A stretch of DNA of 64,000 bases from an uncultured Acidobacteriota bacterium. GTDB lineage: Bacteria > Acidobacteriota > Thermoanaerobaculia > Thermoanaerobaculales > Thermoanaerobaculaceae. A model generated the notes under the pieces. It saw only the letters and a program-made list of their open reading frames with translations. It was not told where the DNA came from and did no database searches. The position numbers and the translations under genes were made by a program. Positions 1-18,054 of the stretch are shown here, in pieces (the first letter of the stretch is position 1; every line of letters begins with the position of its first letter). Where the stretch lies: NCBI GenBank assembly GCA_963751245.1, contig CAVVTR010000003.1, positions 15,929 through 79,928 of the forward strand, in the 5' to 3' direction.

Positions 1-794
1 GCCGACTCCACGTCGGCGAAGTAGACGAGCTCGAAGGCGCAGGGGGACGGCTCGCGCTGCAGCAGGACGCGCGCGTCGACCTCCAGGCCGCCGTCGACGA
101 ACAGCGCGGCGCCGTGGGGCACCTCCTCGTCCACGGTGTAGCCGTTCTGCTCCAGCGCGATGCTCTCCGAGGCGACCATGAGGAACCGCCCCGAGGGGCC
201 GTCCTTGTGCCCGCGCACCATGGGGCGGAACCCATGGGGATCGCGGAAGGCGTAGAGGCCGTCCCGGGTCGCCGCCACCGCCGAGTAGGCGCCGGTCACC
301 CGCTCCTGGACCTCGCGGATGGCCATGAACATCACCTCGGGCTCGGGCGCCGTCGGGTTCGCCGCGCGGTAGTGGTCCCGCCACAGGCTGAGCACCCGGA
401 GCAGCGGCTCGGCGTCACAGTCGGAGCCGAGCACCTCGCCCCGCCCGGCGAGCTCGCCGGCGATCTGCGGGATGTTGGTGATGTGGCCGTTGTGCGCCAG
501 GCCGATGCCCGAGAAGGCGTCGTAGAACGGCTGGGCGTTGTCCCGGCCGCCCTTCCCCACCGTCTTGTAGCGGGTCTGCGCCACCCCGACGGAGCCGGGC
601 GTGCCGCCGAGCTGCTTGAAGACGTCGTCGGCGAGCCCCTCCTCCTTGACCAGGCGGAACGTGCGGCGGGCGTGGTCGATCACGAACAGCCCTGCGTAGG
701 CCTGCCCGCGATGCTGGAGGAAGTGGGCGCCGTTGGCGATCTCCTTGACGACCGGCGCGCTGTCCTTGGCGATGACTCCGACGATCCCGCACAT
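1..794 (-). CDS. purF: amidophosphoribosyltransferase, N-terminal part (gene continues beyond window start)
   Basis: Absent from the ORF track because it runs off the window edge. Reverse-strand translation from the ATG (complement of 792-794) reads MCGIVGVIAKDS..FLQHRGQAYAG..VAQTRYKTVGKGGRDNAQPFY..GLAHNGHITN..SDCDAEPLL. This is the N-terminal-Cys class-II glutamine amidotransferase signature in its PurF form. Confidence 0.8.
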   Translation of the reverse strand, partial: MCGIVGVIAKDSAPVVKEIANGAHFLQHRGQAYAGLFVIDHARRTFRLVKEEGLADDVFKQLGGTPGSVGVAQTRYKTVGKGGRDNAQPFYDAFSGIGLAHNGHITNIPQIAGELAGRGEVLGSDCDAEPLLRVLSLWRDHYRAANPTAPEPEVMFMAIREVQERVTGAYSAVAATRDGLYAFRDPHGFRPMVRGHKDGPSGRFLMVASESIALEQNGYTVDEEVPHGAALFVDGGLEVDARVLLQREPSPCAFELVYFADVES

Positions 795-843
795 CTCGAC
801 GGCGGCCACTCTACACCTTTTCGGGCCTCCGCCGAAACCGGCG

Positions 844-1899
844 TCAGACGCAACCGGCGCTCGGGTCGAGGCTGAGGGGTCCCAGCCTGGCGGGGTCCTT
901 GCGCAGGTGGGAGGCGAGGGTGCGGCCGAGCTGCTCCTGCACCGCCCGCGGGTCCGCGGCGCCTGCGCCGGTGAGGGGCACCCAGCCCCCGGCGGTCATG
1001 CCGTGGCCGCCCCCGCGCCCGTTCTTGCCGACCAGGACGCGCATGAGCCGGCCGGCCTCGCCGCGCGGGTTCGACGTCCGCATGGACAGGTAGATCCGCC
1101 CTTCGAAGCGCCCCGTGCACAGTGCCCAGCTCTTCCCCTCCATGCGCAGCAGGAGGTCGGCGACCTCGGGCACGATGTCGGGCTGCTCCACCTCCTCCAG
1201 GTGGCTCACCACCAGTGTGCCGACGGTCTGGACGTTCTCCAGGGCCTGGTGGAGACAGCGGAAGTAGGAGACCGGCAGCGACGCCTTCTGGATGCGGCCC
1301 AGGGCCCGCTTGTTCACCCGGGCCAGGAAGGCGTCGTAGGTGGCCCGGTCTTCGAGGGTGTACTCGCGCCCGAAGTCCTGGGTCTCGGAGCGGATGGCGT
1401 AGACGACGGCGGTGGCCTCCGCGACGGAGACGGCCACCCCGGCGGCGGCGAGGTAGCCCGAGAGGATCGTCACCGTCGCCCCGAAGGCGGGGCGCACGTC
1501 CACGAAGCCGGCCGAGCGCGTGCCGCGGCGCAGGGGGTGGTGGTCGAAGACGAGGTCGGGCACCGTCCCCTTCGGCAGGGCGTTGTTGCCCGTCCCCGGC
1601 TGGGTGTCGACCAGGGCGAAGCGGTGGAACCGCGCCAGGGAGAGGTGGTGCACGTCGCTCACCCGCAGCTTGAGGCTGCGCACCATCTCGCGGTTCTCGG
1701 CCCGCCCGATGAGGCCTCCGAACGCGGCGGTGGCATCGCGGCCGAACGCCTCGCGCAGCAGCCCGGCGAGGAGCACCGCCGAGGCCAGGGCGTCGGGGTC
1801 GGGGTTGTCGTGGGTGAGCACCAGCCACCGCCCGGGACGCGCCCGCACCACGGCCTCCAGCTGCCGGTACCGCCGTTCGCTCTCCGCCGCGTCGCTCAT
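844..1899 (-). CDS. DHH/DHHA1 family phosphoesterase (NrnA-like)
   Basis: Track ORF 844..1920. DHH motif (LVFDHHP) and DHHA1-type GGGH (RGGGHGMTAGG). Start moved to the ATG at 1899 (MSDAAE), which has GAGG 6 nt upstream. Confidence 0.8.
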   Translation of the reverse strand: MSDAAESERRYRQLEAVVRARPGRWLVLTHDNPDPDALASAVLLAGLLREAFGRDATAAFGGLIGRAENREMVRSLKLRVSDVHHLSLARFHRFALVDTQPGTGNNALPKGTVPDLVFDHHPLRRGTRSAGFVDVRPAFGATVTILSGYLAAAGVAVSVAEATAVVYAIRSETQDFGREYTLEDRATYDAFLARVNKRALGRIQKASLPVSYFRCLHQALENVQTVGTLVVSHLEEVEQPDIVPEVADLLLRMEGKSWALCTGRFEGRIYLSMRTSNPRGEAGRLMRVLVGKNGRGGGHGMTAGGWVPLTGAGAADPRAVQEQLGRTLASHLRKDPARLGPLSLDPSAGCV

Positions 1900-1958
1900 C
1901 GGTGCCTCGAGTGTACACACGCCGCCGGGCGTCCGGCCACCGGCCCCGGAAGCGGGGG

Positions 1959-3224
1959 TCAGAGCAGCAGGAGCAGCGGCAGCACGCCGGCCACCGCCAG
2001 CACCGCGAGCCCGGCGAAGCCCCGCACCCCGGTGGAGCGGTCGGCGAAGAGCATGGCGTAGACGCCCTTGACCAGGTTGTTGCTCGCCGTCGCCACCACG
2101 ATGGCGGCGGCCGCGGCCACCAGCGGTGTGACCGCCCCGGCGGTCTGGGTCAGGCTCAGGATGAAGGGGTCCACGTCGGTGAAGCCCATCAGCACCGCGA
2201 GGGCGTAGACACCCACGATGCCGAACGCGGAGACCACCAGGGTCGAGGCGATGAGCACGGCGATGAAGATGGCGGCGAACAGGAACGCCGACCGCAGCTC
2301 CAGGGGGTTCTTCGCCACGTACCGCCGCTCGGGATCGGGCACGCCGCCGTCGGGGAGCCGCGTCCAGGCGAACCCGGCAAGCATGGCGGCCGCGCCGAGG
2401 GCGAGGAACGGCGCGGCCAGCTTCTCCAGCAGCGCCTCGTTGAAGAAGAACAGCAGCACCAGCACGCGCAGGTACATCGCACCGGAGGCCACCACCATGC
2501 TGCCGGCGAAGAGGCTCGGGCGCGACTCCCCCCGGGCCCGCCGGGCCAGCACCACCGTCATCACGGTGGAGGAGTAGGCCCCGCCGAGCAGCGCCGCGAG
2601 CACCACCCCTCCCCTGGCGCGGGTGACCCGCTGCAGGACGTAGCTCGCGTACGAGATGCCGCTCACCGCGGCGACGATGAGCCAGGTGGTGAACGGGTTG
2701 ATGTGGAAGCGGGTGAGGTCGCGGTCCGGCACGATGGGCAGGATGACCGCGGTGAGCAGGAGGAACTTGGTGAAGGTGATGATCTCCTCGGAGGGGATCG
2801 TCTCGGTGAGGCTCTCGAGCCCCGCCTTGAGCTCGAGCAGCAGCATGCTGGCCACCACCACGGTCGTCGCCACCCAGTAGTGGCCGTGGTAGACCACGGC
2901 GCCGAGCACGTAGGTGAGCAGCCCCGAGACCTCGGTGGTGACGCCGGCGTCCCCGGCGGTAGCCAGCTTGTGGAGGTAGGACACCAGCAGGAACGCCCCC
3001 ACCACCACCAGCCCCGCGGCCACCGGCAGCAGCTGGTCGCCGGACAGCAGCGCCATCCCGTAACCGAGCAGCCCGATGAGCGGGAACGTCCTCACCCCGC
3101 CGAAGATGTAGTGGCCGGCCAGCGCCTTGCGACCCTCCCGTTCGAGACCGAGGAGGAACGAGAACGACAGCACGAGGAGGATCTTGAACGCCTCCGGCTG
3201 GCTGAGAGCGACTTCCGGCGTCAC
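1959..3224 (-). CDS. MgtC/SapB-family + DUF4010-type integral membrane protein
   Basis: 421-aa polytopic ORF. The N-terminus has the MgtC-type LGLEREGR motif. GTG start preceded by GGAGAGGGAGAGG. Very high GC3. Confidence 0.7.
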   Translation of the reverse strand: MTPEVALSQPEAFKILLVLSFSFLLGLEREGRKALAGHYIFGGVRTFPLIGLLGYGMALLSGDQLLPVAAGLVVVGAFLLVSYLHKLATAGDAGVTTEVSGLLTYVLGAVVYHGHYWVATTVVVASMLLLELKAGLESLTETIPSEEIITFTKFLLLTAVILPIVPDRDLTRFHINPFTTWLIVAAVSGISYASYVLQRVTRARGGVVLAALLGGAYSSTVMTVVLARRARGESRPSLFAGSMVVASGAMYLRVLVLLFFFNEALLEKLAAPFLALGAAAMLAGFAWTRLPDGGVPDPERRYVAKNPLELRSAFLFAAIFIAVLIASTLVVSAFGIVGVYALAVLMGFTDVDPFILSLTQTAGAVTPLVAAAAAIVVATASNNLVKGVYAMLFADRSTGVRGFAGLAVLAVAGVLPLLLLL

Positions 3225-3313
3225 CGGCCTCTCCCTCTCCGGCGCCGCCCGGCGCCGGCGTTCCCGCGTGAGTGACGCTCCATGCTACCCCACCCGCCCG
3301 GCCGCCGCGGAGC

Positions 3314-3772
3314 CTACCGGGTGCGCGCGGCCAGGAGCTCGCGCAGCGCCGCGGCGTGGCGCCGGTCGTCCCCGGACAGCGCCTCGAGGAGGCTCGCGAT
3401 CTCCGGGTTGGCGTGGGCCACGATCAGACGGTAGTGGCCCTCCGCCGCGCCCACCTCGATCTCGAGGGCGGCGCGCAGGGCGCCGGCGAGATCGGTGCCG
3501 CCGTCGGCCGCGCGCAGCCGGGCGGCCTCCTCCAGGGCCCGCTGCACCTCGGCGAGGTCGGCGTCCACCTCACCGAAAGCGTTTGGACCGGTACGGGCCA
3601 GCCGCCGGGCGTGCCGCACCATGCCCAGGTGGCGTCTCTCCTCCAGGGCGAGCCGGAAGAACACGCCGGAAGCCTCGGGGTCGCCGCCGAACACCGAGGA
3701 CAGGTGCTCGTACATCTCGGCCATGGCAGCTTCGAGGGCCTCCAGCGGGCGCAGCAGCGTCACCAGATCCAC
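3314..3772 (-). CDS. ferritin-like / rubrerythrin-like helical protein (putative di-metal site)
   Basis: This is the C-terminal real part of spurious track ORF 3314..5398. Sequence: VDLVTLLRPLEALEAAMAEMYEHL..LALEERRH..LEIEVGAAEGH..GDDRRHAAAL, giving an E / ExxH / E / DxxH spacing typical of four-helix-bundle di-iron proteins. GTG at 3772 is preceded by GGAGGA; an alternative ATG lies at 3724. It sits 71 nt downstream of the 774-aa fusion gene on the same strand. Confidence 0.5.
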   Translation of the reverse strand: MDLVTLLRPLEALEAAMAEMYEHLSSVFGGDPEASGVFFRLALEERRHLGMVRHARRLARTGPNAFGEVDADLAEVQRALEEAARLRAADGGTDLAGALRAALEIEVGAAEGHYRLIVAHANPEIASLLEALSGDDRRHAAALRELLAARTR

Positions 3773-3843
3773 AGATCCTCCATCGGTCGTTCCGCGGCGG
3801 GCGCGAGGTCCCCCACCGCTCCCGCGGCGCGCTCCGGTCCGTC

Positions 3844-6168
3844 TCAGCCGAGCTGCTGCAGCAGGCGGTCGGCGACGCTCTCGCGCGACGCCACGGCGGT
3901 GTTGAGCACCACGCAGCGGGCCGCGGCGAAGAGCCGCTCGTGCTGGCTGCGCAGCAGCTCCGCCCGCGCCACGTCCAGCCCGGCCAGGTGCGGGTTGAGG
4001 AACGGGAACGAGGTCCCGCGGCCGCCGGGCAGGAGGCCGCCGGCCAGGATCCGCGCCGCCTCGCGCGCCTCGATCTCCTGGACCAGCGGCAGCACGGGGT
4101 CCGCGGCCAGCAGGACGCACAGCCGCGGGGAGGTGCGCCGGACGTGCCGGCGGGCGCCGCCCAGCCAGTAGGGATCGATCATCGCCCGGCCGTCGCCGGA
4201 GGCCTCGAGGCACACGGCCGCGCCGCGGTCCAGCGGGCAGGTGTCGTCGGGGTGGCTGACGTGGCAGGCGTCGCGGCTGGTGACGAAGTTCTCCAGCTTC
4301 GACCGGTCCAGGAGCTTCTCGATCTCTCCCAGCGCGCGCGCCCACTTGGCCTTGAGGTAGAGCTTGCGCTCCGGGAGGTCGGCGACGGGCTCGTGGGCCC
4401 CCAGCCGCACCAGCAGCGTATCCGCGGAGACCAGCTTGACCCCGTCGCGGCCCAGCGCCGCGGCCAGCACACCGGTGCGCCCCGAGCCCGGACCGCCCCA
4501 GACCAGGACGCCGGCGCCGTCCACGTCCAGCGCCGCGCAGTGGGCCAGCAGGGCGCCCGAGGTACGCGCCGCCGCCTCCCCCGCGAGCTGCATGGCGAGA
4601 GAGCGGACCTGCCCGTAGAACGCCGTGTTGAAGGTGAAGGCGGTGGCCGTCTCCAGGCTCAACGCCGCGGAGGGCTCGCGGCCCGGCACGTCCTTGACGG
4701 CGTAGATCACCGCGTGCGGCTCCAGGTCCCCCTCCAGCGGCGCCGGGTAGAAGTTCTCCTGGAAGAAGTCGGCGAGGTGCGGCGAGGACGTCCGCAGCTG
4801 CACCACGATCCCGGCGATGGCCGCGTTCCACTCGAAGTAGCTGTCGGGGGCAAGGTGCGCCTCCGCCTCGGCCAGCAGGGTGTTGCGGCTCTCGAGGCCG
4901 GTCACGGCCCGGGTCTCGGCGTAGCGGGAGACCTTGGTGAGGACGTTGTTGAGGGCGCGGGGGCGGAGCCGGCGCGGCGCCTCGAGGCGTGCCAGGGCCT
5001 TCTCGATGCGCCGGGCACCCTCTTCCAGGCGGTCCATGGAGGTGGCGAAGGACAGGCGGATGTGCGCGTCGGTGCCGAACGCCTCGCCGGGCACCACGGC
5101 CACGTGGGCCTCCTTGAGCAGGTAGTACGCCAGGCCGTAGGTGTTGCGGACCGGCGCCCCGCCGAACTCCCGGTCCAGGTAGCGCGCCACGTTGGGCATG
5201 ACGTAGAACGCGCCGTGGGGCGAGTAGCAGGACACGCCGGGCAGGGAGCGCATCTTGTACACGATGAAGTTGCGCCGCCGCTCGAACTCCTGCCGCATGC
5301 GCTCCACCTCCATGGCGGTGGAGCGCAGCGCCTCGACCCCCGCCTTCTGCACGAAGGAGGTGGCATTGGAGGTGTTGTGGGACTGCACCTTGGAGCACGC
5401 GGCGATGAGCTCCCGCGGCCCCGCGGCGTAGCCCAGCCGCCAGCCCGTCATGGAGTACGCCTTGGAGAAGCCGTTGATGACGACGGTGAGCTTCCTGATC
5501 GGCTCACCCAGGGAGGCGATGGAGGTGAAACGCTGGCCGTCGTAGATGAGCTTCTCGTAGATCTCGTCGGAGATCACCCAGATCTGCTCGCGGACGCACA
5601 CCTTGGCGATCTCCTCGAGCTCCTCCCGGGAGTAGGTGGCGCCGGTGGGGTTGCAGGGGTAGTTCAGGATGAGCGCCTTGGTGTTGGGCGTGATCGCCGC
5701 GGCGAGGTCCTCGGCGCGGAGCTTGAAACCCTCCTCCTCCCGGGTGGGGATGAATACCGGGTTGGCGCCGCACAGCTTCACCTGGTCCGGGTAGGAGACC
5801 CAGTACGGCGAGGGGATGAGGATGTCGTCGCCGGGCTCGTAGAGGGACTGGGCCACGTTGAACAGGGAGTTCTTGGCGCCGACGGAGACGATGATCTCCT
5901 CCGGCGAGAAGCGGACGCCGTTGTCGCGCTCGAGCTTCTCGCAAATGGCCTTCTTGAGCTCGGGGATGCCGTCGTTGGCCACGTACTTGGTGAAGTTGGC
6001 GTCCAGCGCCGCCTTGGCGGCGCGCTTCACCGACTCCGGCGAGGGGAAGTCCGGCTCCCCCGCCGAGAAGTCCACGACGTCGATCCCCTGGGCGCGCATC
6101 TGCAGAGCCCGGGCGGAGATGCGCAGCGTCGGCGAGAGGGCGATGCGGTTGGCGCGTTCGGAGGGCAT
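3844..6168 (-). CDS. fusion protein: class I/II PLP aspartate aminotransferase (aa 1-~395) + HPr-kinase/PEPCK-fold P-loop-like domain (aa ~400-774)
   Basis: N-terminal half has AspC-type motifs (GEPDFPSP, NYPCNPTG, GFSKAYSMTGWRLGY). C-terminal half: LLAHCAALDVDGAGVLVWGGPGSGRTGVLAAALGRDGVKLVSADTLLV, which is the HprK C-terminal-domain pattern with Arg in the Walker-A Lys position. There is one continuous high-GC3 frame and no in-frame stop at the junction (~4960-5000). Confidence 0.8.
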   Translation of the reverse strand: MPSERANRIALSPTLRISARALQMRAQGIDVVDFSAGEPDFPSPESVKRAAKAALDANFTKYVANDGIPELKKAICEKLERDNGVRFSPEEIIVSVGAKNSLFNVAQSLYEPGDDILIPSPYWVSYPDQVKLCGANPVFIPTREEEGFKLRAEDLAAAITPNTKALILNYPCNPTGATYSREELEEIAKVCVREQIWVISDEIYEKLIYDGQRFTSIASLGEPIRKLTVVINGFSKAYSMTGWRLGYAAGPRELIAACSKVQSHNTSNATSFVQKAGVEALRSTAMEVERMRQEFERRRNFIVYKMRSLPGVSCYSPHGAFYVMPNVARYLDREFGGAPVRNTYGLAYYLLKEAHVAVVPGEAFGTDAHIRLSFATSMDRLEEGARRIEKALARLEAPRRLRPRALNNVLTKVSRYAETRAVTGLESRNTLLAEAEAHLAPDSYFEWNAAIAGIVVQLRTSSPHLADFFQENFYPAPLEGDLEPHAVIYAVKDVPGREPSAALSLETATAFTFNTAFYGQVRSLAMQLAGEAAARTSGALLAHCAALDVDGAGVLVWGGPGSGRTGVLAAALGRDGVKLVSADTLLVRLGAHEPVADLPERKLYLKAKWARALGEIEKLLDRSKLENFVTSRDACHVSHPDDTCPLDRGAAVCLEASGDGRAMIDPYWLGGARRHVRRTSPRLCVLLAADPVLPLVQEIEAREAARILAGGLLPGGRGTSFPFLNPHLAGLDVARAELLRSQHERLFAAARCVVLNTAVASRESVADRLLQQLG

Positions 6169-6259
6169 CGGTCGTCTACCTCACGGGCGGCGCCGACCCC
6201 GGGGGCCCGTGGCCGGCGATGCGTGCATCGGGGCGGGGAAACGGCCCGCTCCGAGGCGT

Positions 6260-7642
6260 CTACTCATTTTCCGGCTCGCGCTTCTTGGCGCGCTGCAGCA
6301 GGTCCTCGAGCTTGAGGCCGGTGAGGGAGTGCACCACGGTGGGCAGCTGGGCCAGCACCGACGCCACCTGTCCGGTGAGCCGGGGAGCGCCGTCGGCGTC
6401 CCCCACCATGATGATCTTGTCCACCTTGGACAGGGGCTCGGAGACGGCGCGGGCGAGCTCGGGAAGCTGGCGGATGACCATCTCGGCCAGCGCGGCGTCG
6501 GTGTAGTGCTCCCACGCGGCGGCCTTGGCCTGCATGGCCCCGGCGTCGGCCTTGCCCCTGGCCGCCGCCGCCTCGGCCTCGGAAGCGCCGATCAGACGGA
6601 TGCCGGCGGCCTTGCCCTTGGCGTCCAGCTCCTTCTTGTAGGCGTCGGCCTCGGCCTCGAGCTTCGCCTGGTAGCTCATCGCCTCGGCGGGACGCTTCAC
6701 CGTGGCCTCGAGCTCCTTCTCGCGGCGCTCGACCTCCAGCGTCTCGACACGGGCGGCGAGCTCCTTCTCGGCGATGCGCACCTGGTACTCCTGCCGCTTG
6801 AGCTCCTCCGACAGCTTGGAGCGGCTGAGCTCGTAGGAGATGTCGGCCTCGGCGCGCTTGGTGTTCACGGCGGACTGATACTCCGCCCTCTGCATCTCGA
6901 AGTCCCGCGTCGCCGCGGCCAGCTCGGCCTCCGCGGCAAGACGCGCCACGTCCCCCTCCTTGCGGTACTCGGCGGCACGGATGGCGGCGTCGCGCTCGGT
7001 CTCCGCCTCGGCGATGGTGGCGTCGCGCTTGACCTCGGCGATGCGGCGGGCGCCCAGCGCCTGCAGGTAGCCCTGCGCGTCGCTGATGTCCTTGAGCGAG
7101 AACGCCAGCAGCTCGAGCCCCAGACGGGAGAAGTCGTCGCTGGCCGTCTCGCGGACGCGGGAGGCGAACTCGTCCCGCTCGGTGTAGACCTGCTCCACGG
7201 CCATGGTGCCCAGGGCGGCGCGCATGCGGCCCTCGAGCACCTCCTGCGCCACCGAGCTGATCCCCGAGGCCCCCTTGGCCAGGAAGTTCTCGACGGCCCG
7301 GTGGAGGAGCGTCTCGTCGCTGGCCACCTTCACCTGCCCGTACGCCTCGGCGGAGATGATGATGCCCTGGGCGGTCATCACCTCGGGGCAGCGGATGGAG
7401 ATGGAGGCCACGTCCAGGGGCAGCACGTCCACGGTCTCCACGAGGGGCAACACGAAGGTGCCGCCTCCAACCTGCAGGCGGTAGCCGACCTTGCGCTTCC
7501 GCCCGTCGGGCTCGGTGACGGTCGAGGTCCGACCCGAGACGACCAGCACCTGGTTGGGCCCCACCTTGCGGTAGTTCAGGGCCCAGAGAACGAAGATCGC
7601 TACGATGACGACCGCGGCGATGATCCAGGGAAGATACGCCAT
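6260..7642 (-). CDS. flotillin / SPFH (band 7) family protein
   Basis: Real part of track ORF 6260..8014, starting at ATG 7642 (MAYLPWIIAAVVIVAIFVLW) with GGAGG upstream. N-terminal TM segment, SPFH domain, then a long Ala/Glu-rich coiled coil (EAEAxx repeats) typical of bacterial flotillins. Confidence 0.85.
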   Translation of the reverse strand: MAYLPWIIAAVVIVAIFVLWALNYRKVGPNQVLVVSGRTSTVTEPDGRKRKVGYRLQVGGGTFVLPLVETVDVLPLDVASISIRCPEVMTAQGIIISAEAYGQVKVASDETLLHRAVENFLAKGASGISSVAQEVLEGRMRAALGTMAVEQVYTERDEFASRVRETASDDFSRLGLELLAFSLKDISDAQGYLQALGARRIAEVKRDATIAEAETERDAAIRAAEYRKEGDVARLAAEAELAAATRDFEMQRAEYQSAVNTKRAEADISYELSRSKLSEELKRQEYQVRIAEKELAARVETLEVERREKELEATVKRPAEAMSYQAKLEAEADAYKKELDAKGKAAGIRLIGASEAEAAAARGKADAGAMQAKAAAWEHYTDAALAEMVIRQLPELARAVSEPLSKVDKIIMVGDADGAPRLTGQVASVLAQLPTVVHSLTGLKLEDLLQRAKKREPENE

Positions 7643-7839
7643 AGCTGCCTCCGCCGCCCGCCGGGCGGACGTCGGAACCTTACGACAAGTTCCCTCCGCG
7701 TACAAGGCCGCAACGCCCCGCACATCCCCGTCACGCGCGCGTCGGCCCGCCCGCTGTCGGCCGCCGTCCCCCCGCGGTAAGATGAGAGCAGTCGCACAAC
7801 GAGGACGCTGTCTGCTGGAGCGGCGCCGGAGGGCCGTCC

Positions 7840-10800
7840 ATGGACCGATCCGACACGCCCGGGACGCCGGGCACCGGTGGAGCCGGACCGCCGGACCGGG
7901 AGCCCGGCCGGGACTGGTTCCAGCGCAGCCTTGCCGGTCTGTACCGGGCGCGGACCGACGGCGTGCTCCTCGACTGCAACGACGCCTTCGCCGCCATCTT
8001 CGGACTCGCCTCACGGGCCGAGGCCGTCGCCTCCGGAGTGGAGGACCTGCGCGACCCGCCGCCCGAGCGCCGTGCCCTCCTGGACGAGCTCGCCGAGCGG
8101 GGCGCCGTGTCCGGGCGGGAGTGGCGGGGCCGCCGCCGCGACGGCGCCGGGATCTGGCTGCTCGAGAGCGCCGCGCTGGTCCGGGAAGCGCCGGGGGGAC
8201 CGGCGACGATCGAGGGCAGCATCATCGACGTCTCGGAGCGCCAGCGCGCGGAGGAGGCACTGCGGGACGCCGAGCGCCGCTCCCTCGAGATCATCGAGGC
8301 GGCGCCGGTAGGCATCCACGTCTACCGCCTCCGGGACGACGGAGCGCTCATCTTCTCCGGCGGCAACCCCGCCGCCGAGCGGATCCTCCGCCTCGACCAC
8401 CGCCCGCTGACGGGTCTCACCATCGAGGAGGCGTTCCCCGCCCTCGCGGGCACGGACATCCCCGACGCCTACCGGGAGGTGGCGAGGACCGGCAGCACGT
8501 GGCACGACGAGCAGCTGACCTACGAGGACGACCGGGTGACCGGCTGCTTCGACGTCCACGCCTTCCGCACGAGCCGCGACACGATGGTGGCGACGTTCAC
8601 GGACATCACCGAGCGGCGCGCCGCCGAGCGCGACCTCCACGACTCCCGGCAGATGCTCCGGCTGGTGCTCGACACCATCCCCCAGCGGGTGTTCTGGAAG
8701 GACCGCGACTTCACGTACCTCGGGTGCAACCGGCACTTCGCGCGGGACGCGGGCGTCGACGACCCGTCCCGGATCGTCGGCCGCAACGACTTCGACCTCG
8801 CGTGGCGGGAGAGCGCCGCGCGCTACCGCGCCGACGACCGCCTGATCATGCTCGCCGACCGGCCCAAGCTCGACTTCGAGGAGCCGCAGACGAGGCCCGA
8901 CGGCTCCACGGTGTGGCTGCGCACCTCCAAGGTGCCGCTCCACGACCCCACCGGCGCCGTCATCGGGCTCCTCGGCACCTACGAGGACATCACGGAGAGA
9001 AAGCGCGCGGAGCAGGCCCTCCGGGCCAGCGAAGAGCGCCTCGAGCGGGCCCTGTGGGGGGCGGACCTGGGCCTGTGGGACTGGCACGTCCAGACCGGCG
9101 AGGTTTTCTTCGACCAGCGCTGGGCCACCATGCTGGGCTACTCCATGGAGGAGCTGGAGCCCACCCTGGCCTCCTGGGAGCGCCTCGTCCACCCCGACGA
9201 CCTGCCGGCGGTGAGGCAGGCCCTGGAAGCCCACCTGCGCGGCGAGACCCCCGCCTACGAGACGGAGCACCGCGTGCGGACGCGGACCGGCGCCTGGAAG
9301 TGGATCCTCGACCGGGGCCGGGTGACCGAGCGCGACCCCTACGGCCGTCCGCTGCGCGCCACCGGCACGCACCTCGACGTCACCCAGCGCCGGGAGGCCG
9401 AGGAAGCGCTGCGGAGCTCCGAGGAGAAGTTCAGGGAGCTGGTGGAGAACGTCAGCGACGCCATCTACGTGTGCGACGCGCAGGGCCTGGTGACCTACAT
9501 GAGCCCGCGGGTGGCGCAGCTCACCGGACACGAGCCGGACGACCTGCTCGGCCACCCCCTCCTCGAGCTGGTCCATCCCGCCGACGCCGCCGTCGCGGCG
9601 TCCGCCCTCAACGGCGCCCTCGCCGGACAGGTGCTCCGGGTCGAGGTCCGCATGACCGACGCCGGGGGCGCCGTGCGCTGGGTGTCCCTGTCGTCGCGCC
9701 GGGTGGTCCGGAACGGGGAGCCGGCGGGCGTCCGCGGCGTGCTCTCCGACGTCACCGACCGCCGCCAGGTGGAGGAGCAGCTCCGGCAGGCCCAGAAGAT
9801 GGAGGCGGTGGGCCAGCTCGCCGGAGGCGTCGCCCACGACTTCAACAACCTGCTCCAGGCCATGCTCTCCCTGGTGGCGCTGGCTGGCGGCGTCGAGACC
9901 GCCGCCGCCAACGCCCGCGAGCTCGCCGAGCTCGACCACCTCATCCGGCGGGGCGCCCAGCTGGTCCGTCAGCTGCTGCTCTTCTCCCGCCGGGAGAGCG
10001 GCCGCCCGGAGCCGCTGGACCTCGGCGAGGCCGTGCGCGCCACCGTGACCCTGCTGCGCCGGCTTCTGAGGGAGAACATCGAGCTCGACCTCCGCCTCGC
10101 CGACGAGCCGCTCCCCCTGGAGGCGGACCGCACGCAGCTGGAGCAGGTCGTCGTCAACCTGGCCCTCAACGCGGCCGACGCCATGCCCGACGGCGGCCGG
10201 CTCACCATCGCCACCAGGCGGGGCCGCCGTGACGCCGTGGTGCTGGAGCTGACCGACACCGGGCACGGCATCTCCCCCGAGGTGCGGGAGCGCATCTTCG
10301 AGCCGTTCTTCTCCACCAAGACGGCGGGCGCGGGCAGCGGGCTGGGGCTGGCCGTGGTCGATGGCATCGTCACCGGGCACGGCGGGCGCGTGGAGGTGAC
10401 GAGCTCTCCCGGCCGGGGGAGCGCCTTCCGCGTGCACCTCCCGGGCGCTCCGGCGGCTCCGGCACCCGGGAACGGGGCGGCCGCGGACCTCGAGCCCACC
10501 CCCGCGGGGGCCGGCGAGCGGGTGCTCCTGGTGGAGGACGAAGAGGACGCGCGGAAGGCGCTCAGCGGCGTGCTCCGCATGCTCGGGTACGAGGTCGCCG
10601 CCGCGGGAACGGGCGAGGAGGCCCTCGCGCTCGCCGGCGATCCCGTCCCCGACCTCCTCCTCACCGACCTCGTCCTGCCGGGCATCCCCGGCAGCGAGCT
10701 GGCCGAGAGGCTCACCCGCCGCCACCCCTCCCTGCCCGTGATCTTCATGTCCGGGTACACCGACAACGACGTCTCGAGCCTGGACACCCGCCCCGGCGAC

Positions 10801-11463: not shown

Positions 11464-11503
11464 GGACACCGTGCGGAGGCGGGGTGACGAGGAGCGGGGA
11501 GCC

Positions 11504-11887
11504 GTGCTGAGCCGCGTCCTCGCCGTGGCGGCCGGAGGCGCGGCGGGCGCGGTCCTGCGCTACGGCGTGTCCGGCTGGGTGTCGAGGCTCACCCAGGCCT
11601 CCTCGTTCCCCTTCGGCACGCTGGCGGTGAACCTGCTGGGCGCCTTCGTCCTCGGCGCCGTCCTGGGCAGCACCGCGACGGGGCGCTTCCTGCTCTCGCC
11701 GGGGCTGCGCACGCTGGTAACCGTGGGCGTGCTGGGCGCCTTCACCACCTTCTCGACGTTCACCTACGAGACGGTCGAAGCGTTGCGCGTGGGCGACCTC
11801 CGCGTGGCCCTCCTCAACGTGGCGGTGAGCCTCGCCGCCGGGCTTCTCGCTTGCTGGCTGGGGCTCGTGGCCGGAGAGAGGCTGTGA
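11504..11887 (+). CDS. crcB: fluoride ion channel CrcB/FluC
   Basis: AAGGAAGAVLRYG..FPFGTLAVNLLGAFVLG..GVLGAFTTFSTF are typical CrcB motifs. Start placed at GTG 11504 (GAGGAG 9 nt upstream); the track start is 11471. Confidence 0.85.
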   Translation: MLSRVLAVAAGGAAGAVLRYGVSGWVSRLTQASSFPFGTLAVNLLGAFVLGAVLGSTATGRFLLSPGLRTLVTVGVLGAFTTFSTFTYETVEALRVGDLRVALLNVAVSLAAGLLACWLGLVAGERL

Positions 11888-11903
11888 GACGGGAGGACAG
11901 GCC

Positions 11904-12260
11904 GTGACGCGACTGCAGGGTGAGGGCAAGCTGCTCCGCATCTTCATCGGCGAGGGCGACCGTCTCGGCGGCCGCCCGCTCCACGAGGCCATCGTGCAGG
12001 CCGCCCGGGAGATGGGCCTGGCCGGCGCCACGGTTCTGCGCGGCGTGTCAGGGTTCGGTGCCCGCTCGCTCCTCCACACCGCCAGGCTGCTGCGTCTCTC
12101 CGAGGACCTCCCCATCGTCATCGAGGTGGTCGAGACGCCCGATCGCATCGACACGTTCATCGCAAAGGTCGAGGCCATGCTCGACGAGGCCAACTGCGGC
12201 GGCCTGATCACCGTGGAGAGGGCCGAGGTGATCCGCTACAGCCCCGACGCCCGGCGCTGA
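11904..12260 (+). CDS. DUF190 (PII-like) protein, commonly paired with crcB
   Basis: GKLLRIFIGEGDRLGGRPLHEAIV..ARE.GLAGATVLRG.SGFG is the DUF190 pattern. GTG start with GGGAGG upstream, 16 nt after crcB. Confidence 0.8.
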   Translation: MTRLQGEGKLLRIFIGEGDRLGGRPLHEAIVQAAREMGLAGATVLRGVSGFGARSLLHTARLLRLSEDLPIVIEVVETPDRIDTFIAKVEAMLDEANCGGLITVERAEVIRYSPDARR

Positions 12261-14916: not shown

Positions 14917-14945
14917 TTGACACGGCTCGTACCTGGGGGCACACT
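14917..14945 (+). promoter_or_regulatory. weak putative promoter of cstA
   Basis: TTGACA (14917-14922), 17 nt, CACACT (14940-14945), in a lower-GC patch. The ~100-nt leader is rich in GGA motifs. Confidence 0.2.
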
Positions 14946-15046
14946 TGGCGACAGTTCAATCACGTGCCACGGACCCGGGGGGGAACGTCGGAGGAGGGAG
15001 CCGCCGCTCCCGGGCAGCCGCAGGCGAGCACACGGAGGGAGGGACC

Positions 15047-16754
15047 ATGAAGGCCATCATCCTCGCCGTGGTCGGGCTCGGCATGTACCTCTTCGCCTAC
15101 CGCTTCTACGCGAAGCTCCTGGCGGAGAAGGTCTACCGGCTCGATCCAAACTTCGTCACGCCGGCCCACGAGTTCTCGGACGGCACCGACTACGTGCCCA
15201 CCAACAAGCACGTCCTCTGGGGGCACCACTTCACCTCGGTGGCCGGAGCGGCGCCCATCGTCGGCCCCGCCATCGCCGTCTACTGGGGGTGGCTGCCGGC
15301 CCTCGTCTGGGTGATCCTCGGCACCATCTTCTTCGCCGGCGCCCACGACTTCGGCACCCTGTGGATCTCCTCCCGGCACAAGGCCCGCTCGATGGGGTCG
15401 CTCTCCGAGGACGTCGTCTCCAAGCGGTCGCGCGCGCTGTTCATGGTGGTCATCTTCCTGCTGCTGCTCATGGTCAACGCGGTGTTCGCCATCGTCATCG
15501 CACGCCTGTTCGTGCGCTTCCCGGGCAGCGTCGTGCCCATCTGGTTCGAGATCCCGGTGGCCCTCCTCGTCGGCTGGCTGATCTACCGGCGCGGCGGCAA
15601 GCTGCTGTGGCCGTCCATCGGGGCGCTCGTCGCCCTGTACGTCATGGTGTGGTACGGCTACAAGATCCCGGTGGTCATCCCCGAGCACTTCCTCGGCCTC
15701 GGGCCGGCGGGGTTCTGGGTGGTGGCGCTGTTCATCTACGCCTGGGCCGCCTCGCGCCTGCCCGTGTGGCTGCTGCTGCAGCCCCGCGACTACATCAACT
15801 CGCACCAGCTCATCGTCGGCCTCGCGATCCTCTACGTCGGCATGGCGGTGGGCAACCCGACGGTCGTCGCCCCGGCGATCAACGCCGCCCCGGTCGGCGC
15901 GCCGCCGATCTTCCCCATCCTGTTCATCACCATCGCCTGCGGCGCCATCTCCGGCTTCCACGGCCTGGTCTCGTCGGGCACGTCGTCGAAGCAGCTCGAC
16001 AAGGAGACCGACGCCCGGTTCGTCGGCTACATGGGCGCGGTGGGCGAGGGCGCGCTGGCCCTCGGCGCCATCCTCGTGGTGACGGCGGGGCTCGCCTCCA
16101 CCCAGGCCGAGTGGCTCTCGGGCTTCTACACGAGCTGGACCGCGGCCTCGGGCGGCGCCGCCGGCTTCTTCGTCAACGGCCTCGCGGTCATGGCCGAGAA
16201 CCTCGGTATCCCCGTGGCGGTCGGACAGGTCTTCGCGGCGGTCATCGTGGTGAGCTTCGCCGCCACCACCATGGACACCGGGGTGCGGCTGCAGCGCTAC
16301 ATCATCTCCGAGATCGGCGACCACTACCGGATCCCGGCGTTCCGGGATCCCGACTCTCGCCACGACGCTGGCCGTGGGATCCTGCCTGCTGCTCGCGTTC
16401 GGCGCCCACGCCCCCGGCGGCGGGGTCGGCACGGGCGGCCTGGTGATCTGGCCGCTGTTTGGCACCACCAACCAGCTCCTGGCGGCGCTCTCGCTCATCG
16501 TCATCTCCGTCTACCTGCGCCGGCTCAAGCGCACCATCCTGCCCACCGCCATCCCCATGGTCTTCCTCCTGGTCATGACGGTCTGGGCGATGGTCGACAG
16601 CCTGCAGAACTGGCTGTTCGGGCCGAAGCCCAACTACCTGATGGGCGTGATGGGAACGATCGTCCTGTTCGCGGCGTTGTGGATGGCGCTGGAGGCGTAC
16701 CTGGCGCTGCGACGGCCTCCGCTGCCCGTGGCGGAGGAGCCGGCGCCGGAGTAG
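15047..16754 (+). pseudogene. cstA: carbon starvation protein CstA (peptide/pyruvate transporter family); frame broken by a 1-nt shift near 16349-16353
   Basis: ATG 15047 (MKAIILAVVG; GGAGGGAGGGA upstream). The CstA-like sequence runs to ..RYIISEIGDHYRIPAFRDP, after which that frame becomes Arg/Pro junk. The CstA C-terminus (TLATTLAVGSCLLLAFG..IWPLFGTTNQLLAALSL..) continues in the +1 frame (track ORF 16374..16754). This is either a real pseudogene or an assembly indel. Confidence 0.8.
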
Positions 16755-16760
16755 ACGACC

Positions 16761-17033
16761 ATGGCGCAGACCTGGCAGCGTGTCCGCGAGGCGTGGCGGC
16801 GCTTCAACGCGTTCTACGACGAGCTGTTCCTGGCGCCGTACCGCTCCGCCGTGGCGCGCGAGCGGCGCGACCGCGAGGACCTCTTCCTGCTGCTGTGCTT
16901 CTCGGACATGCTGGGCATCCCAAACCCCGTCAACTACTACACCCTCGAGCTGCTGCCCTACGTGATGGAGCGCTTCCACCAGTGGCACATCCGCCAGGGC
17001 ATGGAGCGCTCCCCCCTCGAGGGATTCCGCTGA
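16761..17033 (+). CDS. small conserved-looking hypothetical protein (90 aa)
   Basis: ATG lies 7 nt after the cstA stop, with GGAG upstream. GC3 is near-saturated, so it is probably real coding sequence. I recognise no motif (..LFLLLCFSDMLGIPNPVNYYTLELLPYVMERFHQWH..). Confidence 0.65.
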   Translation: MAQTWQRVREAWRRFNAFYDELFLAPYRSAVARERRDREDLFLLLCFSDMLGIPNPVNYYTLELLPYVMERFHQWHIRQGMERSPLEGFR

Positions 17034-17088
17034 TGCTGAGACCGGGGCCCCGGCGGGGCCCCGCGTCCTCAGCGCCGCAGGGACGCTG

Positions 17089-18054
17089 ATGCCGGTCTCC
17101 AGCTGGCTCGACCACCGGGTGGTGTTCTTCGGAGGCAAGGGCGGCGTGGGCAAGACCACCTGCGCCACCGCCTTCGCATTGCTGGCGGCGCGCTCGGGGC
17201 GCCGGACCCTGCTGGTCTCCACCGATCCCGCCCACTCCACCTCCGACATCCTCGAGACCCCGCTCGGGCCCGAGCCGTCCGCCGTCGCCGAGTCCCTGTG
17301 GGCCATGGAGATCGACTCGGAGCGGGAAGCCGCGGAGTACATCGAACGGGTCCGCGGCAACCTCATGAAGGTCACGGCACCGCACCTGCGCGCCGAGATG
17401 GAGCGGCAGGTCGAGATGGCGCGGGTGTCGCCGGGGACGGAGGAGGCGGCGCTCTTCGACCGCCTGGCCGACGTGCTCCACGAGGCCCACGGCCGCTACG
17501 ACCTGGTGGTCTTCGACACCGCGCCCATCGGCCACACCCTGCGCCTGCTCTCCCTGCCCGAGCTCCTCCAGGCCTGGGTCGACGGCCTTCTGCAACGGCG
17601 GCGGAGCGTCAACCGCATGAGCGCGATGTGGCGCCAGATGACGGTGGGGGGCGGACCCGACGACGAGGCCGAGGACCCGGTGGAGGCGATCCTCCTGGCC
17701 AGGCGCCGCAAGTTCTTCCAGACGAGGCAGATCCTGCTGGAGCCCGGAACCACGACCTTCGTCTTCGTCCTCATCGCGGAGCGCCTGCCCATCCTGGAGA
17801 CCAGCAAGGCGATCACCCTCCTCCGCCACCACGGCATCCCGGTGGGGGGGCTGGTGGTCAACCGGCTCCTCCCCGCCGAGGCCGCCGGGCACCCGTTCCT
17901 GGCCGCCCGCAAGCAGCGCGAGGCCGCCTACCTGGACGAGGTCGCCGCCACCTTCCACGACCTCCCGCGCATCCACCTGCCGCTCCTCCCCCACGACGTG
18001 GTCGGGATGGAGAGCCTGCAGCGCATCGCCTCCGAGCTGCGCGCCTCCGTGTGA
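17089..18054 (+). CDS. ArsA/GET3-family P-loop ATPase (single-domain)
   Basis: Deviant Walker A FFGGKGGVGKTT, LLVSTDPAHSTSDIL, and switch-II DTAPIGHTLRLLSLP. Confidence 0.85.
   Translation: MPVSSWLDHRVVFFGGKGGVGKTTCATAFALLAARSGRRTLLVSTDPAHSTSDILETPLGPEPSAVAESLWAMEIDSEREAAEYIERVRGNLMKVTAPHLRAEMERQVEMARVSPGTEEAALFDRLADVLHEAHGRYDLVVFDTAPIGHTLRLLSLPELLQAWVDGLLQRRRSVNRMSAMWRQMTVGGGPDDEAEDPVEAILLARRRKFFQTRQILLEPGTTTFVFVLIAERLPILETSKAITLLRHHGIPVGGLVVNRLLPAEAAGHPFLAARKQREAAYLDEVAATFHDLPRIHLPLLPHDVVGMESLQRIASELRASV

Follow-up and report, generated by a model that had tools for sequence, protein, structure and literature searches.

An aspartate aminotransferase fused to a degenerate PEPCK-related domain beside flotillin and PEPCK genes in Acidobacteriota and other bacteria

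We analyzed a 64,000-nucleotide stretch of contig CAVVTR010000003.1 (the window) from an uncultured Acidobacteriota bacterium of the family Thermoanaerobaculaceae. Near its start, a single open reading frame (ORF) joins a class-I aspartate aminotransferase (AspAT) to a C-terminal domain related to phosphoenolpyruvate carboxykinase (PEPCK), in which residues needed for phosphotransfer have been replaced. A flotillin gene lies upstream of this fusion gene, a ferritin-like gene follows it, and a complete PEPCK is encoded further away (Table 1).

Table 1. Features of the window, numbered from its first nucleotide
Feature	Position	Strand	Evidence or remark
MgtC/DUF4010 membrane-protein gene	1959-3224	(-)	preceded by the ferritin-like gene
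Rubrerythrin/ferritin-like gene, 152 aa	3314..3772	(-)	PF02915, 28.4 bits (threshold 22.8)
AspAT–PEPCK-like fusion gene, 774 aa	3844..6168	(-)	ORF; GAGG Shine-Dalgarno before ATG
C-terminal trimmed PEPCK-like domain, aa 396-774, catalytic residues degenerate	3847..4983	(-)	Foldseek, hhalign
Cys cluster CHVSHPDDTCPLDRGAAVC, aa 635-653, C635-x3-H-x4-C644-x8-C653	4210..4266	(-)	insertion relative to PEPCK
Degenerate P-loop GGPGSGRTG, aa 558-566	4471..4497	(-)	Arg564 at the position of PckA Lys254
N-terminal class-I AspAT domain, aa 1-395	4984..6168	(-)	PF00155
Flotillin (SPFH/Band_7 + Flot)	6260..7642	(-)	Pfam Band_7 2.9e-27, Flot 8.9e-07
CrcB-like and DUF190-like ORFs	11471-12260	(+)	named by eye
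Bona fide ATP-type PEPCK, 626 aa	12967..14847	(+)	PEPCK_ATP, 85.6 bits (threshold 26.5)
CstA carbon-starvation (peptide/pyruvate transporter) gene	14945-17089	(+)	PF02554, E 1e-124

The fusion gene and its aminotransferase half

The N-terminal half matched PF00155 over residues 30-388 (E 2.4e-79; 267.6 bits, cut-off 19.7; positions 2-361 of the 361-position model), and its best NCBIfam models were aspartate aminotransferases (E ~1e-121). The motif of the lysine that binds pyridoxal phosphate (PLP), SKxxxxTGWR, was found as FSKAYSMTGWRLGY (aa 234-247), together with CNPTG, SDEIY (aa 200-204) and HIRLSFA (aa 369-375), the last carrying the C-terminal substrate arginine; the roles of residues in the NPTG, DEIY, PLP-Lys and substrate-Arg motifs are established for AspATs. 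The half thus resembles the class I enzymes of the subgroup I-beta type from Thermus, Bacillus and archaea (NF041091, NF004769) over their full length and in all PLP and substrate motifs. Unlike them, the fusion protein bears an extra 379-aa C-terminal extension, and its scores lie under the equivalog cut-offs (405 against 550 bits for NF041091 and 400 against 617 for NF004769), so that its amino-acid substrate specificity is uncertain. This first module is an intact class-I AspAT, which would interconvert aspartate plus 2-oxoglutarate and oxaloacetate plus glutamate, with aspartate as its most likely substrate.

The reading frame runs without a stop from the AspAT half into the 379-aa C-terminal part. 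A preliminary description of this DNA had reported a complete aminotransferase fused in frame to a C-terminal domain, and the 774-aa ORF with its full-length PF00155 match bears this out. Fusion proteins of this kind are currently labeled "pyridoxal phosphate-dependent aminotransferase" or "hypothetical" in public databases. A search with the C-terminal part alone returned 28 close homologues, several of which carry an aminotransferase tail attached through the same linker (...ALARLE(A/E)PRRLRPRALNN...). When one genome of each GTDB species was scanned, 57 loci were found, most of them from Acidobacteriota of the class Thermoanaerobaculia (65-77% identity), where the window's organism thus belongs, and remoter fused members came from Aminicenantes, Myxococcales, Calditrichia, Eisenbacteria and unclassified bacteria.

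Two separate genes might have been joined artificially by an indel at the junction, in assembly or in annotation. Several metagenomic homologues are indeed frameshifted or truncated (P0009, P0013, P0022-24 and L001), some of them on long-read-like contigs, but these breaks are scattered, lying elsewhere than at the junction. The junction itself (4950-5010 in the window) is in frame, and the same junction is conserved in ~50 independent genomes. Rather than being encoded as separate genes, both halves were contiguous and in one frame in ~50 of the 57 species-level loci, which come from independent assemblies, different studies and different phyla, and stop-to-stop ORFs of at least 774 codons spanned both halves in ~45 related genomes. 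Because the junction is in frame in ~50 genomes, we exclude an assembly artefact, the chance of which we regard as negligible. Pairwise dN/dS (the ratio of nonsynonymous to synonymous substitution rates) among close relatives was around 0.1 (range 0.05-0.27) for the C-terminal domain and 0.03-0.12 for the AspAT half, values that indicate purifying selection on both halves.

The C-terminal domain and its family

The preliminary description had compared the core of the C-terminal domain with HPr kinase/phosphorylase (HprK) and the PEPCK fold. For the single sequence, this resemblance was not significant. The Pfam Hpr_kinase_C match stayed below threshold (E 0.19; 11.7 bits against 33.3), the models of HprK-related kinases A and B gave 21.4 bits (TIGR04352, 1.2e-4) and 19.4 bits (TIGR04355) against a cut-off of 200, and TIGR00679 (HPr kinase/phosphorylase) gave 14.4 bits against 240, with ~50 residues aligned. 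The domain had no PEPCK match in Pfam or NCBIfam, and no model in either database covers it; BLASTP against the window's own PEPCK gave no significant match (E 0.43).

By profiles and structure, the resemblance was significant. A family profile searched against PDB sequences found HprK/P 1ko7 first (E 0.0017), and a broader profile found HprK at 2.3e-5 and Trypanosoma cruzi PEPCK at 4.6e-5, the latter over two collinear stretches. The AlphaFold2 model of the domain (pLDDT 63, pTM 0.63) was compared with the PDB by Foldseek; the top 35 matches were ATP-PEPCKs, with GTP-PEPCKs next, and the best match, 1AYL, covered the entire domain (E 2.9e-12, TMq 0.63, ~395 aligned columns). In hhalign comparisons, the whole family aligned with E. 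coli PckA plus a second PEPCK at 98.9% (E 2.9e-16, 367 columns, PckA 56-480) and with a 29-sequence PEPCK profile at 98-99% (E 6e-13 to 4e-16, 256-380 columns). The fused members alone aligned with the 29-sequence profile at 92% (E 6e-7, 240 columns), and weakly with the single PckA sequence (E 0.027). Stand-alone members of the family matched the PEPCK subfamily NF006821 at 1e-11 to 1e-14 (44-54 bits, cut-off 369). Homology between the C-terminal domain and PEPCK is thus visible only by profiles or structure, and Foldseek and hhalign both recovered the two subdomains of the PEPCK fold, the former on a model whose pLDDT was only 63. The profile and structure comparisons that the preliminary description had proposed therefore placed the domain in the PEPCK fold; the shared superfamily with HprK stands, but the homology spans the whole 379-aa domain and not only its core, and is closer to ATP-PEPCK. 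These results show that the C-terminal domain is a trimmed ATP-PEPCK core of the PEPCK/HprK superfamily, nearer to PEPCK than to HprK.

Compared with ATP-PEPCK (E. coli PckA, 1AYL/1AQ2, PF01293, NF006821), the domain has the same fold with both subdomains and a collinear series of motifs. In the order PckA and then C-terminal domain, these are GGTxYGGEMKK and NTAFYGQVRS, MHCSA and AHCAA, GLSGTGKTT and GGPGSGRTG, LIGDDEH and LVSADTL, FEGGCYAK and PERKLYLK, LENV and LENF, ENTRVSYP and GDGRAMIDP, and LVNTG and VLNTA. The motif QLRTNSPH was considered as the equivalent of PckA Arg65 (GRSPKDK) and rejected, as hhalign puts it on PckA 134-152 (VRFITEVAWQAHFVKNMF). The domain is ~380 aa long, not 525-540: ATP-PEPCK has 55 further residues at its N terminus and 60 at its C terminus, an adenine-binding segment and several loops that have no counterpart here. 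It further differs in the replacement of K254, K212, K213 and D268, in a Cys insertion and in its fusion to an aminotransferase. HPr kinase/phosphorylase and the HprK-related kinases A/B (PF07475, TIGR00679, TIGR04352, TIGR04355) belong to the same superfamily, but the sole aligning segment is ~55 residues long, consisting of a P-loop after a beta-strand ending in Asp/Val and then LVxDD. Unlike HprK, the domain lacks the lysine and the HprK C-terminal signature and has a PEPCK-type N-terminal subdomain, and its scores are ~10-fold below the HprK cut-offs.

Residues were mapped onto E. coli PckA, with the numbering checked on the MG1655 sequence, and were counted in 53 fused members (40 Thermoanaerobaculia and 13 others) and in 11 stand-alone homologues (Table 2). 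The replacement of the Walker-A lysine by arginine, noted in the preliminary description, was confirmed at exactly the coordinates given there. The domain of the window lacks the kinase-1a Lys, the kinase-2 Asp-Asp and the Mn ligand K213, and keeps the Mn ligands H232 and D269. Although it descends from PEPCK, it falls short of the model thresholds and of the P-loop Lys, DD and Mn-ligand residues, and we therefore filed it as neither PEPCK nor HprK.

Table 2. Residues at PckA catalytic positions in the two branches of the family
PckA position	Stand-alone homologues	AspAT-fused members
K212	Lys 10/11	Arg 52/53
K213	Ser 11/11	mostly Ser/Thr (window Ser)
H232	His 10/11	His 40/40 Thermoanaerobaculia; R/Y/V/A in most others
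K254	Lys 10/11	Arg 40/40 Thermoanaerobaculia; R/K/M/G in other clades
T255	Ser/Thr 10/11	Thr 40/40 Thermoanaerobaculia; variable in other clades
D268 (DD pair with D269)	Asp 10/11	Asp 1/53; Ala/Ser/Asn (window Ala)

Other active-site positions have been retained. The equivalents of Y207, D269 (D/E), E282 and E311/N312 and the glycine-rich loop are invariant or nearly so in both branches. The R333 equivalent (R661 in the window) is Arg in 49 of the 53 fused members and the Y207 equivalent (Y518) is invariant, so that the PEPCK substrate-site residues Y207 and R333 are both kept. In PckA, Tyr207, Asp269 and Arg333 touch substrate or metal.

The Cys cluster that had been noticed downstream of the P-loop is present and conserved across the fused branch, and this insertion falls between the LENV motif and the Arg333 equivalent. 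Its three cysteines (C635, C644 and C653) were found in 40/40 Thermoanaerobaculia and in 11-13 of the 13 other fused members. Ancestrally, the cysteines follow CX4CXnCX8C; the window has lost the second of them and has a His close by instead. The resulting Cys3(His) cluster looks like a putative structural metal site, a reading that we infer only, because the AlphaFold2 model is poor in the Cys region.

An exhaustive profile search of the family returned 487 cluster representatives at E <= 1e-3. Many of these are stand-alone proteins of ~350-410 aa, and others are full-length fusions (781 and 785 aa). The canonical combination of His, GK[ST] and DD was found in none of the 15 representatives with a visible AspAT tail and in 56 without a tail (111 representatives). 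Judged from these counts, the loss of catalytic residues is specific to the AspAT-fused form. The stand-alone "mini-PEPCK" proteins (for example, MBI4354900.1 from Candidatus Omnitrophota and those of the Bathyarchaeia loci L057/L058) correspond to the same domain end to end at 24-35% identity and share with it the motifs W/YxAxIxG, QLxTNSxH, ENW, NTxYYGQ, ERxxYxxT, NSRA and NPYL. They are unfused and keep the canonical His, GxGK[ST] and DD, and they are therefore probably active P-loop enzymes. The family apparently comprises an active stand-alone branch and a pseudoenzyme branch.

Several further members of the family were observed. A longer stand-alone branch of 450-566 aa (P0077-P0079, P0094, P0103, P0118-P0120, P0125 and P0130) is extended at the N terminus and carries ~100 inserted residues behind the DD motif; the P-loop is canonical in most members, and NCBIfam assigns the branch to no family. 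The stand-alone member P0117 (754 aa) contains an intein (TIGR01445/TIGR01443) after residue ~200, near the P-loop region, which hints that this region is functionally important in stand-alone proteins. In one Thermoanaerobaculaceae genome, the P-loop half of the C-terminal domain (aa ~143-376) is present in three additional partial copies (L014 12446-13282 and L052). All lie on JBGQAK010000004.1 a few kb downstream of the fusion gene and alternate with large secreted repeat proteins; they share 65-68% identity with the window, and one of them forms an intact ORF of 278 aa. The short 220-aa proteins P0016 and P0024, which start with MLVWGGPGSGRTG, may be of the same kind.

Conserved and lineage-specific neighbours

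The flotillin gene lies 91 nt upstream of the fusion gene on the same strand. Of the fused loci having upstream sequence, nearly all have a flotillin orthologue immediately before the fusion gene and in the same orientation, and this position is kept in Myxococcales, in Calditrichia and in loci with a C-terminal domain only 37% identical. The conserved placement directly upstream suggests that flotillin and the fusion gene are co-expressed. Promoter and terminator scans of positions 700-8000 of the window were uninformative.

The PEPCK of the window has intact KK, His, GK[ST] and DD motifs and matched NF006821 at E 1.6e-82 with 278 bits, under the 369-bit cut-off. PEPCK orthologues (55-82% identity) lie ~0.02-5.5 kb from the flotillin-fusion pair in 31 related loci from several phyla. 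They are mostly divergent from flotillin and ~170-340 nt apart from it, as in Myxococcales, several unclassified lineages and many Thermoanaerobaculia; in a Calditrichia locus (L049), PEPCK comes ~20 nt after the fusion gene, in the same orientation. The genes inserted between flotillin and PEPCK in the window encode a PAS histidine kinase, a histidine phosphatase, CrcB, a DUF190-like protein and a GNAT protein. A second kind of fusion was found in P0055, an 899-aa protein that is identical on 3 contigs from three sequencing runs and has an archaeal-looking neighbourhood. Here, the N-terminal part is the domain in degenerate form (GSSENDIAT and ND, without a Cys insert), followed by a full PEPCK scoring above the NF006821 cut-off. 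Taken together, the AspAT fusion, the P0055 fusion and the PEPCK neighbourhood link the degenerate domain to both AspAT and PEPCK.

The surroundings of the stand-alone homologues were different. Among 80 metagenomic loci with canonical stand-alone homologues, none had a PEPCK, AspAT or flotillin neighbour, and the check for stand-alone homologues beside aspC that the preliminary description had proposed found none in these loci (0/80). Two Bathyarchaeia stand-alone loci encode an AspAT homologue on the other strand, at a distance of ~1.7 kb and beyond an M3 peptidase gene; this is weak evidence. A small rubrerythrin-like ORF overlaps the 3' end of the AspAT homologue in one of them (L058 4849-5232 (+); PF02915, 23.3 bits); its parallel with the ferritin-like neighbour in the window is probably a coincidence. 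In 18 of the 40 long archaeal-looking loci (from L061-L140; e.g. L133 1142-2035), an arginase/agmatinase-family gene precedes the stand-alone homologue by ~130 nt in the same orientation, and a carbamate-kinase-like gene is ~2.9 kb away. We set this neighbour aside as a functional clue, since it sits among conserved housekeeping genes (primase, ligase and topoisomerase) and the linkage is probably lineage synteny.

The ferritin-like gene, which follows the fusion gene after 71 nt and in the same orientation, is genuine, as the preliminary description had proposed. Its PF02915 match is above the gathering threshold, it has a GGAGGA Shine-Dalgarno sequence and a GTG start, and its product contains paired E/D-x-x-H motifs (EERRH and DDRRH). 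The idea that it is a conserved neighbour did not hold: tblastn against 60 related loci found no homologue, which rules it out as a partner of the fusion. Only 7 homologues were found among 5.8 billion proteins (46-100% identity), four of which carry PF02915, the window's own included. Apart from the window, L142 (a relative with 78% identity) is the only locus in which the gene comes after the fusion. In L144 (52% identity), it precedes an MgtC/DUF4010 gene, as in the window, and the same pair probably occurs in L142, whose following gene is cut off by the contig end. These results indicate that the ferritin-like gene is a lineage-specific insertion with a partner of its own, MgtC/DUF4010, and lies outside the conserved system.

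Two other observations concern the neighbourhood of the window's PEPCK. The CrcB-like and DUF190-like ORFs are flanked by the histidine phosphatase gene on one side and by the GNAT and PEPCK genes on the other; an Rfam search of the whole 64-kb window gave no match, and hence no fluoride riboswitch. The CstA gene comes after PEPCK, and the last ~330 residues of its ORF look out of frame, which may reflect a frameshift.

Possible roles of the fused domain

The second module of the fusion protein corresponds to a minimal ATP-PEPCK core (PckA ~56-480 with deletions) that, by its sequence, lacks the phosphotransfer residues; K254 and K212 are replaced by Arg, K213 by Ser and D268 by Ala, Ser or Asn. 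We favor the view that this module is no longer a kinase and would act as a pseudoenzyme. It would keep a basic anion pocket formed by Arg522, Arg564 and Arg661 with the Gly loop, and could bind an anion of the oxaloacetate, phosphoenolpyruvate (PEP) or phosphate type, dock a genuine PEPCK encoded nearby, or both. The oxaloacetate made from aspartate would then be coupled, physically or allosterically, to its conversion into PEP, and this coupling would serve gluconeogenesis from amino acids. We infer from these data that there is an even chance that a pseudo-PEPCK module binds a ligand and/or docks PEPCK and so couples aspartate transamination to the PEPCK step; assembly of the AspAT fusion on a flotillin scaffold is a speculative addition. 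The preliminary description had offered two ideas about function. Phosphorylation-linked amino-acid chemistry is disfavored, because the AspAT-fused members have lost the catalytic Lys/Asp set kept by their stand-alone relatives; a regulatory (sensor) domain fits better with the loss of catalytic residues.

A narrower form of the proposal, which we hold tentatively and think somewhat improbable, is that the degenerate domain is an adaptor that recognizes active PEPCK, forming an AspAT-PEPCK complex for oxaloacetate channelling, possibly on flotillin at the membrane. If this is true, a metabolon built with a pseudoenzyme would lead from aspartate through oxaloacetate to PEP across several bacterial phyla, and the same domain would have been recruited independently onto PEPCK in an archaeon (P0055). 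The nearest analogy is HisZ, an inactive HisRS paralogue that regulates HisG. As with HisZ, a degenerate paralogue appears to be kept under selection and genetically linked to an active pathway; unlike HisZ, the pseudo-paralogue is here fused to the enzyme of the preceding metabolic step.

The domain might still be catalytic, in which case the protein would be a true bifunctional enzyme taking aspartate to PEP or pyruvate within one polypeptide; its C-terminal part would then be either a PEPCK whose phosphoryl donor is unusual or an oxaloacetate decarboxylase that needs no nucleotide. The equivalents of H232, D269, T255, Y207 and R333 are present in 38-40 of the 40 Thermoanaerobaculia, Arg564 is invariant there, and purifying selection is strong. 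In PEPCK, H232 and D269 are two of the three Mn ligands and T255 is a Mg ligand; PEPCKs can also decarboxylate oxaloacetate without nucleotide, which counts for this explanation. We nevertheless consider it unlikely. The P-loop Lys position is R/K/M/G across the fused clades, and in P0031 the P-loop is unrecognizable (HAPNVKKERH). The H232 equivalent is R/Y/V/A in most fused members outside Thermoanaerobaculia, and the D268 and K213 equivalents are lost, so that the fused clades have no one set of catalytic residues in common. Moreover, the PckA adenine-binding segment (R449, I452 and T455) is deleted or unconserved, and the complete PEPCK encoded nearby would make a second one redundant. This same variation of catalytic residues among clades, together with the presence of flotillin, the most constant of the neighbours, at nearly all fused loci, would suit a ligand-independent structural role, in which the domain serves in oligomerization or localization, for instance as a tether of AspAT to flotillin microdomains. 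Against such a role, the former active-site residues (Y207, D269, E282-R, E311-N312, R333 and the Gly loop) are near-invariant, which is unexpected for a pure scaffold, and both the nearby PEPCK genes and the P0055 fusion favor PEPCK over flotillin; we rate it as a still less likely explanation. An HprK-like kinase/phosphorylase domain that phosphorylates AspAT or another protein is very improbable. Its P-loop core, the LVSxD segment and the weak HprK/P matches (Pfam 0.19; TIGR04352 1.2e-4; 1ko7 0.0017) speak for it, but the scores are far under the family cut-offs (21 against 200 bits), the likeness spans the whole PEPCK core including an N-terminal subdomain absent from HprK, the essential Lys is gone with no HprK signature after the P-loop, and no HPr or phosphotransferase-system genes were seen in the neighbourhood.

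Some observations weigh against the coupling of AspAT and PEPCK through a pseudo-PEPCK module. The AlphaFold2 model is only of moderate quality (pLDDT 63), and the AspAT scores under the NCBIfam equivalog cut-offs leave the amino-acid substrate unproven. The Thermoanaerobaculia keep the H232, T255 and D269 equivalents and the Arg retains a positive charge, and some residual or altered catalysis by the domain is conceivable. The PEPCK of the window is 5.3 kb away with other genes in between, and in ~10 loci whose upstream sequence exceeds 4 kb, the fetched flank contained no PEPCK. Finally, we know of no link of flotillin to AspAT or PEPCK.

Neither the fusion, the domain family nor the gene cluster turned up in full-text searches of the literature. 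What is new here is a partly pseudoenzymatic branch of the PEPCK superfamily that has not been modeled, in a new architecture and a conserved gene cluster; neither branch of the mini-PEPCK family defined here has a Pfam or NCBIfam model or a name. Oxaloacetate is labile and its cellular concentration is very low, and the hand-over from transaminase to PEPCK is a classic channelling question that has so far been studied mainly in mitochondria. The fusion of AspAT to a degenerate PEPCK, encoded with flotillin and usually with a real PEPCK, is a genetically encoded and directly testable candidate for such coupling. The fusion gene cluster points to an undescribed coupling of the AspAT and PEPCK steps of central metabolism.

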